Shown here: positions 4,062-43,564 of the stretch, in pieces
How the letters are laid out: every line of letters begins with the position of its first letter
How positions within the stretch are numbered: position 1 is the first letter of the stretch
Source: a virus
Taxonomy: Duplodnaviria > Heunggongvirae > Uroviricota > Caudoviricetes
Strand: one strand, 5' to 3'
Virus record (IMG/VR): IMGVR_UViG_3300031853_000005
Location: 1 to 53,468 of that record
Length of the DNA stretch: 53,468 bases
The notes under the pieces: generated by a model
Databases searched by the model: none
What the model saw: only the letters and a program-made list of their open reading frames with translations
What the model was told of the DNA's origin: nothing
Position numbers and translations under genes: made by a program

Positions 4062-4805
4062 TTAAACGTCAATTGTCTCATAGAGAGACGCCTGAACCGT
4101 CAGCGCTGATTTAGGCTTCCCACCGATTGCATATGCCGTCAGCGTTTTGTTATTGTTTGTGATGAAGACCGTCGAAACGCCATCACTGCACAACTGGTTA
4201 ATAGCTGTCGCATCGCCGACGATATCGACCTTTGTCTTTTCCGTAATGTCATAGCCGCTTACAGTCACATTCTGAGTGTAAGGATCAGATCCAGACCATG
4301 ATGTACTGAGAGTAAGTGTGGCAAGAGACTGCGCTACACCTTCCATCAATTCAGTAGCCTGCTGAATCGCCGCATTCATCGTCCTGAAGTCATCCGTAGA
4401 TACAATCAGTGTTGCAACATCGGGAGCAGGAACTACTTCAATCACGAACGGAATTGTACTGAGCGTTGTATCATCCTTGAGCATGCACAAATCGCAATCA
4501 CATCTGCCGACAGCGGTAGTGGTCTGAGACACCAGCTCAATGCTGATCGTATCGTCATTGTTTTTAACAATGAGATAACGTCCAAGTTCAGGGTCAACGA
4601 ATGCGCTGTCCAGAATTACAGCATGACCGTCCGCTTTGTGCTCACGGAAAAGAAATGTAATCCCGCTTTCTGGGATATACTGTTCATTATCTTTCGTAAG
4701 TGTTACTTTGATAAATCGCGCAGAAGCGTCACCCTGTTTCACACGAATCATCGGCAATTGCCCATAAGGATTGACATCAAGCGTGATTTCTTTTGTATAG
4801 TCCAA
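4062..4805 (-). CDS. bppU: BppU-family baseplate upper protein
   Basis: N-terminal VKQGDASARFIKVTLTKDNEQY...FREHKADGHAVILD matches the BppU/DUF2479 pattern; GGGAGGTGA SD with TTG start. Confidence 0.7.
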   Translation of the reverse strand: MDYTKEITLDVNPYGQLPMIRVKQGDASARFIKVTLTKDNEQYIPESGITFLFREHKADGHAVILDSAFVDPELGRYLIVKNNDDTISIELVSQTTTAVGRCDCDLCMLKDDTTLSTIPFVIEVVPAPDVATLIVSTDDFRTMNAAIQQATELMEGVAQSLATLTLSTSWSGSDPYTQNVTVSGYDITEKTKVDIVGDATAINQLCSDGVSTVFITNNNKTLTAYAIGGKPKSALTVQASLYETIDV

Positions 4806-23495: not shown

Positions 23496-23756
23496 TTACT
23501 CTGCAATCTCATCGCTTTCCGCGAATTCCGCTTTCTTCTTACGGGTCTTCTTAATAGGCTTCGGCGCTTCAGCAATAGCTTCAACAGCCGGAGCTTCAAC
23601 CTTCTTGTCTTCGGCAAGCTTATAGCTTCCGTTTGAGAACTCTACCGCAACGGTCTTGATGTTCTTACCGGCAGACGGCATCTGCACACGAACGCCATCA
23701 AAATCAACGACCATTACAGCAGCATTGTTCATAAGAACTTTGCATTCTTTAACCAT
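23496..23756 (-). CDS. Hypothetical protein with basic C-terminal tail
   Basis: AAGGAG SD, ATG, 86 aa. Confidence 0.7.
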   Translation of the reverse strand: MVKECKVLMNNAAVMVVDFDGVRVQMPSAGKNIKTVAVEFSNGSYKLAEDKKVEAPAVEAIAEAPKPIKKTRKKKAEFAESDEIAE

Positions 23757-23776: not shown

Positions 23777-23805
23777 AAAAAAATCACCGGATATAATCCG
23801 ATGAT
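23777..23805 (-). terminator. Rho-independent terminator after free-standing endonuclease
   Basis: ATCATCGGA-ttata-TCCGGTGAT-TTTTTT. Confidence 0.75.
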
Positions 23806-23823
23806 CGATAATCTATATATTAT

Positions 23824-25044
23824 TTAAGCAAAGACAAATTTATGCTTTTTATACATATTTCCACGCTCAATAGATTTTCTTATCGCACGGGAATTCCATG
23901 TATCATCAGTAGTTTGAAAATATTTAGCTACATCAGATGCGCTTTCGAAATACTGATCTGTTGTCAAGCAATAGATCCGCTTTGCACCATGATTAATTTT
24001 ATGACTTGCATCCTTCTTCATACGATCTTCAAACGGTTCATAATCGCACCATCCAAATGCTTTGCCTTTTTGAACGTATTTCAATACCGTCTTCCTATCT
24101 AAATGATATTTGCCAGCAATATCGTCAAGAGTTGCATCCTTATGATTTTCTTTATATACACAGATTTCCTTGACTAAATTACTTAAAGCAAATTGATCAC
24201 AAAGATTCCAGTCGATTATTCCAGGATCTATATTTAAACTAAGAAGCAAGCCAGACTGCAAAATACTTTTACTGATATAATCAACAGACGATTCACAACA
24301 GTCTATTGAAAAGTAATAATCTATACCATGCTCGATGGCTATCTTTTTCTTATACTCATCATTTTCTTTTTCTTGGTCAACCGTTCTACTTCTATCTCCG
24401 CGATTAATAGCTCTATTATAATGCTGGTTTCCATTTAATTCTATGATAATACTACAATCATTATGTCTGAAGTATATATCATAATATCTGTTATTTGACC
24501 AGTCAAAAGACTTTTCGAACTCAAATTCAATTCCAATTTGATCAAGCAACGAATACATAAACTTGTTCGGATAGCTTTTGTTATCGCTACATGTACAAGA
24601 CAGACCATTGTTGCTCATTACTTGATGAATCTGTTTTTTATGAATTTTGCCACAATCTGGGCATTTCATCAAAACATACTGTTTGCTATATTTTGAGTTA
24701 CAATATGCATCTTCTGCATTGATGAAATACTTCATCATCCAGGGAGCAGTCGTAGATACATCATTGATACCATATACAATCTTTTTCGGTGGTTCACAAC
24801 AGGCATTGCATCCTATTCTCGCACTTTCATCGAGACAATACTCTCTAACCCAATCTTCGTTTCCACAATGATTGCAATGATACTTACACCATTTTTCGTT
24901 AAGAGTATATTCAACACCGTTCTTTACTTTTGGAACTGGACGGTATTCGCAATCTACAATAACAAGGTCACGACTAAATGTGTTAATATGATCCCCAATA
25001 TTGTACTTAAACTTTCCAAATTTCTTGCCTATTGTTCTCACCAC
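23824..25044 (-). CDS. Free-standing homing endonuclease-like protein (Zn ribbons + Vsr/DUF559-like nuclease + NUMOD1-like C-terminus)
   Basis: CxxC pairs; YDIYF...IIELNGNQH nuclease motif; KRIYCLTTDQYFESASDVAKYF helix-turn-helix; AT-rich relative to flanks. True start may be ATA at 25032. Confidence 0.75.
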   Translation of the reverse strand: MVRTIGKKFGKFKYNIGDHINTFSRDLVIVDCEYRPVPKVKNGVEYTLNEKWCKYHCNHCGNEDWVREYCLDESARIGCNACCEPPKKIVYGINDVSTTAPWMMKYFINAEDAYCNSKYSKQYVLMKCPDCGKIHKKQIHQVMSNNGLSCTCSDNKSYPNKFMYSLLDQIGIEFEFEKSFDWSNNRYYDIYFRHNDCSIIIELNGNQHYNRAINRGDRSRTVDQEKENDEYKKKIAIEHGIDYYFSIDCCESSVDYISKSILQSGLLLSLNIDPGIIDWNLCDQFALSNLVKEICVYKENHKDATLDDIAGKYHLDRKTVLKYVQKGKAFGWCDYEPFEDRMKKDASHKINHGAKRIYCLTTDQYFESASDVAKYFQTTDDTWNSRAIRKSIERGNMYKKHKFVFA

Positions 25045-25055
25045 CGTTCTATCAG

Positions 25056-25084
25056 ATTATATCATAATTTAACGTTAAGGTGAA
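25056..25084 (-). promoter_or_regulatory. SigA-type promoter for the free-standing endonuclease
   Basis: TTCACC (25084-25079), 17 nt spacer, TG-n-TATAAT (25061-25056) extended -10. Confidence 0.6.
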
Positions 25085-25114
25085 GGTAGCTTGAGAATAA
25101 TCCCAAGCTACCTT
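25083..25114 (-). terminator. Strong hairpin after major tail gene
   Basis: AAGGTAGCTTGGGA-ttat-TCTCAAGCTACCTT, 14 bp; no U-tract on the minus strand. Confidence 0.55.
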
Positions 25115-25124
25115 TTAAGATTGA

Positions 25125-25195
25125 TTAACCTTCGACCTCTTCGTTATCTTCGATCATGTCAAGGATGTTACCATTCTTGTCTTCCAGAAGATCAA
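25125..25195 (-). CDS. Major tail protein exon 2 (..F-DLLEDKNGNILDMIEDNEEVEG*)
   Basis: Joining ACG T| to |TT GAT gives ATVTATFDLLEDKNGNILDM, an in-frame natural C-terminus; spliced product 251 aa. Confidence 0.85.
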
Positions 25196-25549
25196 CCATT
25201 TGTTCCACCGAGTTCGCTACTCTCGATGAGCGCACAAAGCGCATCTCTATGTTTCCATAGAAGTGCAGACTATATCTTCATCCATTTCCGGATGCCCACC
25301 ACAGTCTTCCGCTTGGAAGCACTTAGTCGTTGAACCTTCTCCTATTCGGAGCTTGGCTGCTGATTGTCCATTATTACAGCACTTAGGATTTAACCTTATG
25401 CTATCTACATATTTCTTTCTGCTTTCGCCACCGTCGCACATAGGTGTTTCAACCTTATGCTGTGGTATATGTAGCTTTAGGATTTCCCAGCAATTCAATG
25501 GGTTATTTATCATACACGTCTCCGTATACGGACGCTGTTTATATCTTCA
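25196..25549 (-). ncRNA. Group I self-splicing intron (IA2-like, ORF-less, 354 nt) in major tail protein gene
   Basis: P1 GACGU/GCGUC with U.G at the 5' splice site; core elements UUGCUGGGAA, CAAUCAGCAGCC, UUCAACGACUA, GAAGAUAUAGUCU; extra P7.1-type helix; P8 CAUCCG-GAAA-UGGAUG; terminal G. Confidence 0.92.
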
Positions 25550-26234
25550 ACGTCGCCGTAACCGTCGCAGGATCGCCCTCGGAGCTGAAGGACATCTCCC
25601 AGTTGCGCTGGATGGAAGCCTTGTATGCAGTCATGATGAACGGAGCATACATACCATCTTCGTCCTTGTCCAGCGTGGACATGGTGATGTAGTAGTCCTT
25701 CGGGAGCTTCTTGTTGGAGAAAGCAACCTTCTTCACGCCAGCCTTGACCAGCAGGTAGCCGACCTCGTACTCACTGTTAACAGCAATGCCACTGGCAGCC
25801 GTAGCGGTAAACACGTTGGTAGCGAAAGTGCCAGCAATCGCACTGGACTCATTGCCATACTCGCCAGCGGGGAACACAAACACGGAACCCTCTGCAACGC
25901 TGTTGCCATCGCCGGGAACGAGAGTGATCTTGCCAGCCTCTGTAGCCTTAATGGTCTCATGCTTTGCGAAGGTCGCAGAAGAATCAATAGTTCCATCAGA
26001 ATACAGAGAGAAGAACTTGAACCCACGAACCTGCGCTTCGACGCTCATGGTGCCGGTGATGGGGTTCGGGAAAGCAATCTTACGTGCGCCCTTCGCCATC
26101 GCATAAACGGAATCACCCTGAAGACCAACGGTGGTTACGTTAGCGGTTTCGAAGAACAGGAAAGGCATCATTGTTTTCAGAATGCGAATATCGAGGTCAC
26201 AGACCTGTCTATTGGCACGATTCAGTTCAGCCAT
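25550..26234 (-). CDS. Major tail (tube) protein exon 1
   Basis: NRANRQVCDLDIR...ANVTT...KGARKIAF N-terminus, highly biased codon usage; the track ORF ends at a stop 9 nt inside the intron. Confidence 0.85.
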
Positions 26235-31346: not shown

Positions 31347-32628
31347 CGATAGTGTTTGTCAGCTTGCTAATTCTGCCGACAAAATCTCATCGATTCTGTC
31401 GTAATCAAAATATGGAATTCTGATCAAATGAATACCGTGTGTCGAACAATATTCATTTTTAATTTGATCGTGCATTTGTAATATAGAAAATGCTTTCTCC
31501 CCACCGAAGAAAGCATTTGATTTGAAGTGTTGCACTCCATCATATTCAATTGCAGTATTTAAACTTTTAATATAGAAATCAAATGGAAGAGCATATTTGT
31601 CCTTACAATCATCAAACCTATATTCATGAATAAATTGTATTTGATGACTTTTCAGCCAATGATCTATTTTTAATTCGCCATCTGATTTCTTACAATTCGG
31701 ACATCCGAGTGATGTGTTTTTACTCAACGCATCGTGCGGAGACTTATCAAAGTATGTTCCACAAATACTACAGCGCATAGTTATTTTATGTCTGTTGTTC
31801 GAATACTTACCGATGACAATTATCTCAGGATGCTCTCGATTCATTTCTTCAACGAATTCATCATGTGTTTTTCTGTTAACACCTGAACACTTTGGACATC
31901 CTTTTCCACTAAGTATGCTGTGTGGAGTTGCCTCCCATTTGTGGTTACATATGCCGCACTTCAATAAGATTTTATTATCTGTAGATTTATAATCTCCCAA
32001 AACTATAATATTTGGATTAATAGTTTTAACTTCTTCGATAAACTCATCCTGTGTTTTCTTCTTTGTTCCACCGCATTTTGGGCAACCAGAACCAAAACAC
32101 ATACTTCCAGGAGTCGAATAAAAGCTGTATCCACAGACATCACAGCGCATTTCAATCTTTGTCCTATTATTCTTATATGTACCAATAACAGTTAAAGTCG
32201 GATGCTTTTCTTTCATTTCCGCAATAAACTGTTCATGAGTTTTACGTTTGATAGAATCACATCCATTCTATATTTTTTTTCGACACAGAATTAGCAATAA
32301 CGGTTCGCTACACCGCGCAAGCCATAAGGCTTCTCATACTTTCATATGAGTCCAGACTATATCATTCACCATGCTTTCGTTTAGGTGTCCTCCACTTCGG
32401 GAACGCTTGTTCCCTAACAGCATTTCAGCCGATAGTCGTTGAACCTTCCTCTATTCGAGGCTTGGCTGCTGATTGCCCAATCCATATACTTTTTAAATCC
32501 ATTACGTTTAAGCATTTCATCTTTCCGCTTTGGCTATATGGCTCTAAGGGTTTTCCAGCAATTCAAAGGAATTCATTATATGCTTTCACATATAACGGAC
32601 TAATCACGCGACATAAGTCGCGCTTCTA
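31347..32628 (-). ncRNA. Group I intron (IA2-like, 1282 nt) with homing endonuclease ORF in the P9 region
   Basis: P1 GAUUAG/UUAGUC with U.G at ATGAU|; core UUGCUGGAA, CAAUCAGCAGCC, UUCAACGACUA, GAUAUAGUCU; P7.1/P7.2 helices; perfect 12 bp long-range pair 32286-32297 with 31364-31375 enclosing the ORF; terminal G at 31347. Confidence 0.92.
31359..32252 (-). CDS. Intron-encoded homing endonuclease (repeated Zn-ribbon units + Vsr/EDxHD-like nuclease)
   Basis: Three KKT(Q/H)DEF.EE...CxxC...CPKC repeats; LPFDFYI...AIEYDGVQHF nuclease motif; frame open to ATC at 32252 behind GGATGTGA (track ATG at 32216). Confidence 0.85.
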   Translation of the reverse strand: MKRKTHEQFIAEMKEKHPTLTVIGTYKNNRTKIEMRCDVCGYSFYSTPGSMCFGSGCPKCGGTKKKTQDEFIEEVKTINPNIIVLGDYKSTDNKILLKCGICNHKWEATPHSILSGKGCPKCSGVNRKTHDEFVEEMNREHPEIIVIGKYSNNRHKITMRCSICGTYFDKSPHDALSKNTSLGCPNCKKSDGELKIDHWLKSHQIQFIHEYRFDDCKDKYALPFDFYIKSLNTAIEYDGVQHFKSNAFFGGEKAFSILQMHDQIKNEYCSTHGIHLIRIPYFDYDRIDEILSAELAS

Positions 32629-42831: not shown

Positions 42832-42907
42832 TGGCGGCTCTTAAAGGACTCGAACCTTTGACATGCTGGTTAACAGCCAGCCGCTCTACCAACTGAGCTA
42901 AAGAACC
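42832..42907 (-). tRNA. tRNA-Asn(GTT)
   Basis: GGTTCTT/AAGAGCC acceptor stem, GCTGG-CTGTTAA-CCAGC, GGTTCGAGTCC, encoded CCA. Confidence 0.97.
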
Positions 42908-42909
42908 AT

Positions 42910-43300
42910 AGAATGCGGTCGGTCATCCATTGTGCCGCTTGTCGGTGGCGTACACCGCAGAATCCCGATTGCGAGAACTAAGGGAAAGTTCCGACACCCT
43001 CCCTTTACAAGAACACATCCCCGAAGGGCCTACTATGCTCTTTCATTCAATAAAACCGACTGTTACGGTACGCCCCATACGGTGGACGTGCGATGAATTC
43101 CAAATCTATACGCCAACTTATATACCGCATACGCCAGCGGTCTGTTGCAAGCAACACTCAGTAACCGCTTGCACGATTACGAAAACCGTTTCTACTATTG
43201 TAGATCGGTAAAAACAGAAAGCCATCAAGTGTGCCGCGCCTCGATGATGGCTGTAAAGAATCTGAGCATCGATATTTGGTCGGCCTGATGGAAGTGCCTA
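42910..43300 (-). ncRNA. Candidate large structured ncRNA inside tRNA cluster
   Basis: No SD-led ORF; many nested helices including cUUCGg and gCUUGc tetraloop hairpins and long-range complements; boundaries approximate. Confidence 0.55.
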
Positions 43301-43313
43301 AAATAATTTTATA

Positions 43314-43399
43314 TGGTCGGGAAGGGTAGACTCGAACTACCGGCGTTTCATCTGTCACGGCTTTACAGGCCGCTACCCTCGCCGCTGGGCTACTTCCCG
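43314..43399 (-). tRNA. tRNA-Tyr(GTA), long variable arm, C1:G72
   Basis: CGGGAAG/CTTCCCG-A-CCA, GCGGC-CTGTAAA-GCCGT, GGTAG-TTCGAGT-CTACC. Confidence 0.95.
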
Positions 43400-43402
43400 A
43401 TG

Positions 43403-43477
43403 TGGTTGCGGGTGCTGGATTCGAACCAGCGTCTTCAGCTTATGAGGCTGACAAGGCTTCCACTCCTCTAACCCGCA
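43403..43477 (-). tRNA. tRNA with CAT anticodon (Met; partly initiator-like)
   Basis: TGCGGGT/ACCCGCA-A-CCA, TCAGC-CTCATAA-GCTGA, GCTGG-TTCGAAT-CCAGC. Confidence 0.92.
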
Positions 43478-43488
43478 GTATATCTATA

Positions 43489-43564
43489 TGGTGGACGGTA
43501 ACGGAATCGAACCGTTGACCTCCTGAGTGCAAATCAGGTGCTCTCCCAACTGAGCCAACCGCCC
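43489..43564 (-). tRNA. tRNA-Ala(TGC)
   Basis: GGGCGGT/ACCGTCC with G3:U70, CCTGA-TTTGCAC-TCAGG, encoded CCA. Confidence 0.97.

Follow-up and report, generated by a model that had tools for sequence, protein, structure and literature searches.

A tail-tube gene split by a group I intron without an ORF and followed by a free-standing Vsr-like nuclease gene: a candidate collaborative-homing cassette in a rumen or gut phage

The split tube gene and its intron

The window (the whole stretch of DNA analysed, 53,468 nucleotides) is the first 53 kb of the 117-kb virus record IMGVR_UViG_3300031853_000005. Every window feature given below lies on the minus strand. The tail-tube gene is of the SPbeta YomU type (homologues carry Pfam PF27173 YomU_Tube) and consists of exon 1 at 25550–26234 and exon 2 at 25125–25195, the latter comprising 71 nucleotides including the stop at 25125. 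The two are separated by a group I intron that holds no ORF, 354 nucleotides long, at 25196–25549, which was identified by Rfam, splice junction and fold. Behind the tube gene lie the gene for a putative free-standing endonuclease (23824–25044; 406 amino acids from a GTG, 402 from an ATA at 25032) and a conserved gene of 86 amino acids (23496–23756) that directly follows the tube gene in sister phages lacking the cassette. Three tRNA genes are found at 42835–43564. We group the module with SPbeta-like phages by its terminase, portal and tube annotations and by Pfam Yom* matches on homologues. Rumen and gut assemblies supply many of the relatives, and those found in MAGs are mostly in MAGs of Clostridia; the source is a rumen/gut phage whose tail-tube gene is split by a group I intron.

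The intron had been called in a first-pass annotation of the letters of the window, and both its extent and its exon junction hold. Rfam RF00028 matches 25245–25535 with 88.1 bits (E 3e-21; gathering cut-off 50). Excision of 25196–25549 joins ACG-T to TT-GAT and restores the frame as ...TATF-DLLEDKNGNILDMIEDNEEVEG*. The intron-free reading is a tube protein of 251 amino acids ending in TATFDLLEDKNGNILDMIEDNEEVEG, which matches the intron-less homologue P0001 (251 amino acids; 97% identical over exon 1) in length and C-terminus. The intron ends in G, an exon U precedes it, and a P1 with a U·G pair at the 5′ splice site is present in the MFE fold. The intron region folds more stably than all 100 shuffles (z = −4.8). 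In its architecture, P5 is extended and additional sequence is inserted between P7 and P3′; the intron is probably of IA type. No homing-type ORF was found within its 354 nucleotides, and the complete tube introns (approximately 20 distinct) are all 349 to 408 nucleotides long and ORF-less. Four tube homologues of 338 to 342 amino acids (P0008, P0015, P0017 and P0023) have a C-terminal extension directly after the exon-2 region.

An orthologous intron at locus L169 occupies the same insertion site and is 71% identical to that of the window. A metatranscriptome contig (run X2, rumen/bovine gut) skips exactly positions 4168–4538 of this locus, 371 nucleotides, and an X2 contig closes position 4538 onto 4173, giving a circle of 366 nucleotides from which the first five bases are absent. 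Neither the splice joint nor the circle was present in three DNA runs. It is the L169 intron, rather than the window copy, for which exact excision and circularisation in vivo are seen. Entries L004, L029 and L068 (IMGVR_UViG_3300025804_000153) were considered as an intron-less allele with an intact nuclease and rejected, because they are 100% identical to L169 apart from a precise gap of 371 nucleotides and the joint appeared in an RNA run and in none of three DNA runs. This identity is explained by the splicing seen in the RNA run; the record is probably spliced cDNA and was excluded from counts. Note that RNA-assembled “viral genome” records in IMG/VR can mimic intron-less alleles. Gene callers, for their part, truncate split tube proteins and may mis-start the nuclease.

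The adjoining nuclease gene

The nuclease ORF begins 80 nucleotides behind the tube stop, as first annotated. It would be intron-encoded if the true 3′ splice site lay behind the ORF, as in the second intron of the window, where a capsid decoration gene is interrupted at 31347–32628 and a Vsr-like ORF, distantly related, lies inside the intron, close to its 3′ end. This arrangement, to which we assign practically no probability, was ruled out for the tube locus: exon 2, which encodes the conserved C-terminus and carries the stop, precedes the nuclease, RNA of the orthologue shows a short intron excised there, and all complete tube introns fall within the short, ORF-less range given above.

The predicted protein consists of N-terminal Cys-pair modules, a Vsr/EDxHD-like domain (residues ~156–272), an HTH (~289–340) and a NUMOD1-like region (~353–406); the predicted structure agrees with the initial Zn-ribbon/Vsr-like/NUMOD1-like domain call. 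PHROGs matches were phrog_4538 (unknown) and phrog_9084 (homing endonuclease). Pfam gave nothing significant, and sequence searches of the PDB found neither 3R3P nor Vsr. In the structure model (pLDDT 91.6), residues ~153–272 align with 3R3P, the catalytic domain of I-Bth0305I (Z 8.4, rmsd 3.2, 97 residues), and with 1CW0, Vsr (Z 8.3, rmsd 4.2, 114 residues); Z values near 8 are modest, and a RAP domain ties with these scores. Residues 353–406 match the C-terminal DNA-binding domains of I-HmuI (Z 6.8) and I-TevI (Z 5.6). Foldseek returned no match to the model at E ≤ 0.001, with 3R3P at E 0.07. By its model, the ORF has a predicted Vsr/EDxHD-type nuclease fold.

Active-site residues of the I-Bth0305I/EDxHD group are D196, N208, H213 and D222, with an invariant Glu at the position of Vsr Phe62 (PMC3239194, PMC2677866). 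In the tube nuclease, the apparent candidate active site is D189, E202, N204, H208 and D229, mapped by motif and secondary structure rather than by residue-level superposition; D189, E202, H208 and D229 are invariant among 47 homologues and intact in the window copy. The predicted fold, the NUMOD-type modules and a putative D..E-x-N-G..H..D site resemble those of I-Bth0305I and other EDxHD enzymes; I-Bth0305I differs in being intron-encoded, 266 amino acids long and C-terminal in the placement of its nuclease domain (PMC3239194, PMC2677866). The nuclease domain of the tube enzyme is central, between the Cys-pair modules and the C-terminal HTH/NUMOD1, and the equivalent of Glu170 appears to be N160.

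Isolated phages yielded only distant nuclease homologues (at most 34%). All close homologues with readable upstream DNA lie behind a tube gene, both the top IMG/VR matches and the proteins looked up by identity (11 of 11), so this nuclease subfamily is dedicated to the tube locus; more distant homologues occupy loci without a tube gene.

The homologous start position of the nuclease is the ATA at 25032, behind the ribosome-binding site GGTGGTGA. The GTG at 25044 would fall ~5 nucleotides from the predicted transcription start, and the ATA is probably the start codon. Since locus L270 has ATG where the window has ATA, expression of the nuclease is probably damped, and the window copy may be attenuated or decaying. 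Taken further, the ATA (present also at L011) could mean that the nuclease is inactive or untranslated, that the block was moved by ordinary recombination between its conserved flanks and that co-occurrence is a relic of past homing. Nucleases that are frameshifted or reduced to remnants (L199, L202, L034 and L209) and the 4 to 5 intron-bearing clusters lacking a nuclease point the same way. We consider neutral linkage of this kind quite improbable: TTG and other weak starts are frequent in the family, the candidate catalytic residues are conserved as described, the window and L011 nucleases differ by 17 synonymous versus 11 non-synonymous codon changes (synonymous changes are the more numerous in four nuclease pairs), and in DNA run X5 the cassette is younger than its background, as described below.

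A hairpin without a U-tract lies behind the tube gene at 25083–25114 and was not called a terminator. Both intron-less and intron-bearing alleles carry a hairpin at that position, and most orthologous nucleases start 15 to 30 nucleotides behind it, often with TTG. The first-pass annotation gave the nuclease its own promoter, with a −35 overlapping this hairpin, and its own terminator. Both elements are present in the window, as a sigma-70/SigA-like promoter candidate (25056–25084; TTCACC-17-TATAAT with TG) and an intrinsic terminator-like hairpin behind the nuclease (23782–23806). The overlap exists and amounts to 2 nucleotides only, and the promoter match alone is not above chance (the scan found 10, against 8.6 ± 3.1 expected from shuffled sequence). 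L270, the locus of the closest nuclease homologue, shares the extended −10 (TGATATAAT) and not the −35; most orthologous loci have neither, and no conserved nuclease promoter was found. The terminator-like hairpin was absent at all three orthologous loci inspected. Across loci, therefore, the claim does not extend to the system, most orthologues being without both elements, and the comparison indicates that promoter and terminator are lineage-specific.

Joint inheritance, conversion tracts and exchange

Among tube-query clusters, 8 of 13 alleles with the intron have the nuclease beside them, as do 4 of 85 alleles without it (OR 32, p 3e-6, with no correction for kinship), and all four states (intron present or absent, nuclease present or absent) occur. 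On a quick tree of exon 1, made with the junction excluded, alleles with both elements stand at 12 separate places, at least 10 of which are forced by starred branches, and they are often sisters of alleles with neither; L261 and L262 were omitted from tree and counts. Phylogenetically independent pairs gave 7.3 in the same direction versus 0.0 in the opposite one (median p 0.016). For tube-query loci alone the values were 3.1 versus 0 (p 0.25), too few for power. Pattern scans for further intron alleles yielded no loci beyond those already found. Independent distribution of intron and endonuclease among relatives, which the first-pass annotation had named as evidence against its proposal, was not observed.

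Near-identical sister phages without intron and nuclease differ from the window chiefly in exon 2, the pattern expected of a homing conversion tract. Identity of the window to L144 is 98.5% as far as the insertion site, falls to 86% within exon 2 and is 97.6% from the ribosome-binding site of the next gene onward; window exon 2 is 86–87% identical to the intron-less sister allele, with sister flanks at 98%. A few bases of exon 1, in the P1 pairing region, belong to the tract, and its right end is the ribosome-binding site of the 86-amino-acid gene, where identity to the sister resumes. In five close cassette-discordant pairs exon 2, the co-converted part of the cassette, differs at 5 to 12 of 57 nucleotides, whereas 21 same-state pairs have a median of 1 difference (p 0.0004; p 0.001 when background-matched). 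In four of five independent pairs, divergence of the downstream gene is at background level right from the start of that gene, the exception being L169/L003, and a tract usually ending at this start argues against a target inside the downstream gene. Between DNA run X5 and L169, there are 20 differing sites in exon 1, none in intron and exon 2, and 5 in the nuclease; by this count the X5 cassette is younger than its background. Alignment of sister phages indicates that gain or loss affects intron, exon 2 and nuclease jointly, as one cassette. Joint inheritance into element-less alleles is a strong tendency and not an obligate link.

Distances between introns and between nucleases are uncorrelated (Mantel r 0.10, p 0.19), with no co-divergence. 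L005 and L169 are 100% identical in intron and in exon 2 and 48% identical in nuclease, with a breakpoint at the tube hairpin; L176 and L199 are 95% identical in intron and 46% in nuclease. A comparison of L188 with L199 likewise showed a nuclease exchanged independently of the intron. As judged from these alignments, the partnership is loose and facultative, and one nuclease can be swapped for another next to the same intron. The original pairing of intron with nuclease is supported by co-occurrence far above independence, by joint movement with exon 2 and by a locus-dedicated subfamily; it is not exclusive, given the four states and the swapped nucleases.

Target site, immunity and known systems

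Among nuclease carriers, the canonical FD[LI]xED motif is found in 11 of 14 alleles with the intron and in 2 of 11 without it (p 0.005). The other nine intron-less carriers have changed residues at the insertion site (FTLLED, FDLLET, FDLMVD, CDLLED, MSVLQD and others), and a sliding-window scan placed the excess divergence of intron-less carriers most strongly over that site. An altered motif also occurs in 22 of 81 intron-less, nuclease-less alleles; the altered-site signal goes to p 0.075 once stratified by background divergence, and the contrast in independent pairs gives no decision either way. Both canonical intron-less carriers, L184 and L265, are DNA-derived. L184 (WGS assembly) is one silent base beside the junction away from an intron-bearing allele, and its contig end cuts off the nuclease. 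Three insertion points lie within 6 nucleotides, each near the same nuclease family: that of the window (0), one 6 nucleotides upstream in L261 (1477–1859; same intron family, same ACGU context) and one ~5 nucleotides upstream in L262 (~1073–1421; inferred junction). The intervening sequence of L262 has P7-like motifs, is unrelated to the window intron, and matched neither Rfam nor the intron model built here.

Our preferred reading, which we consider probable, is a collaborative-homing cassette in which the nuclease target would span the exon junction and the intron would give immunity. Two of the three defining features of collaborative homing were found, namely an adjacent free-standing nuclease with an ORF-less intron, and joint inheritance. 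Homing would take place during mixed infection or against a prophage already resident. There the nuclease would cut an intron-less tube allele at its 3′ end, in the conserved DNA that codes for T-F-D-L-x-E-D. Repair, starting within exon 1 and only a few bases upstream of the insertion site, would resolve at the start of the next gene, with intron, exon 2 and nuclease copied together. The carrier would be immune because the intron splits the target site, and nuclease carriers without the intron would probably escape by changing the site at the cost of amino-acid changes. Hairpin and poor start codon would keep nuclease expression weak, and the partnership would be facultative, nucleases being replaced over time. 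The nuclease swap beside an identical intron (L005 versus L169) is unexplained if intron-bearing alleles are fully immune.

The same exchange, together with that of L176/L199 beside a near-identical intron, fits hitch-hiking (trans homing by co-conversion). Here the cut would fall near the intron at a site that the intron does not split, for example wholly in exon 2; self-immunity would come from silent changes in cassette exon 2, and the intron, within ~170 bp, would be dragged along and protect nothing. Cassette exon 2 differs from its sisters at 7 to 12 of 57 nucleotides, mostly silently, and L184 is intron-less, canonical and nuclease-carrying, as this explanation would have it. We nevertheless judge it unlikely, if by no means negligible, as canonical residues are kept with the intron and mostly changed without it on both sides of the junction, and the three closely spaced insertion points are all beside the same nuclease family.

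A broader reading, put forward tentatively and at less than even confidence, sees the 3′ end of YomU-type tube genes as an arena of free-standing Vsr-like nucleases that have diverging specificities and displace one another beside a persistent intron. Immunity would come from acquiring a group I intron, of one of two lineages and at one of as many as three points within 6 nucleotides, or from amino-acid changes in the tube. If this were true, the intron would provide immunity while sparing a constrained structural protein from mutation, and the natural series would show a nuclease-first route to mobile introns.

Collaborative homing as such is known. The psbA intron of S-PM2 and free-standing F-CphI are one case (Zeng, Bonocora & Shub 2009, via PMC6083498). 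In that case, a group I intron without an ORF, located in a conserved gene, adjoins a free-standing endonuclease, as at the tube locus, and the intron is proposed to block self-cleavage, as proposed here (PMC6083498). F-CphI carries an Endo VII motif, and bench experiments demonstrated its cleavage and the immunity given by the intron (PMC6083498); the tube-locus enzyme, in contrast, is Vsr/EDxHD-like, the interrupted gene encodes a virion structural protein, and the system is known from comparative data. The Kayvirus phages 812, A3R, 676Z, Fi200W and P4W have tail-tube introns and an adjacent orf104 nuclease (PMC6445280). As here, the introns are non-coding, and introns and neighbouring putative nuclease are jointly present or absent; unlike here, the tube is an unrelated myovirus one, there are two introns, and no homing test was made (PMC6445280). 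The present tube is of the SPbeta YomU type, with all four states sampled.

The ICP1 terminase intron with its adjacent T5orf172 nuclease has the same layout, and T3/T7-like cases are also described (PMC10448857). The origin of this arrangement is said there to be unclear; nuclease turnover is raised as an origin, and turnover is seen at the tube locus. The same paper proposes purging of an intronic nuclease, whereas none of the ~20 distinct complete tube introns has an ORF; given these and the widespread intron-less nuclease carriers, a nuclease-first history fits better than purging.

In the literature searched, the coverage of which was incomplete, no Vsr/EDxHD-type nuclease was described in collaborative homing. 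Few cases are named there, and the tube locus adds dozens of alleles in four states, along with close sister pairs, conversion tracts, alleles that may be naturally immune and an orthologue whose intron is spliced in vivo. With four-state alleles and sister pairs at hand, one enzyme could be tested on a ready-made substrate panel. What is added to a known process is a Vsr/EDxHD-type partner, the four-state series, conversion tracts, nuclease turnover and orthologue RNA.

Other insertions were seen in the window and its relatives. The second group I intron (31347–32628, 1282 nucleotides) interrupts the capsid decoration gene directly after ATG-AT; spliced, this gene reads MIKFRTVGEIEIAKNNPVL..., as in the intron-less relatives L268 and L269. 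The 3′ part of the intron holds the Zn-finger-repeat/Vsr-like ORF (31359–32216 and upstream), with an apparent ATC start behind GGATGTGA (~32248–32262), a second non-canonical start in this genome. One genome thus has a nuclease inside one intron and outside the other. The cassette-less sister phage L006 has another putative nuclease, of Zn-finger/CapR type (488–1210), as an insertion in the head-tail module, and the record containing L005 (G002) has two or more group I introns, perhaps four.
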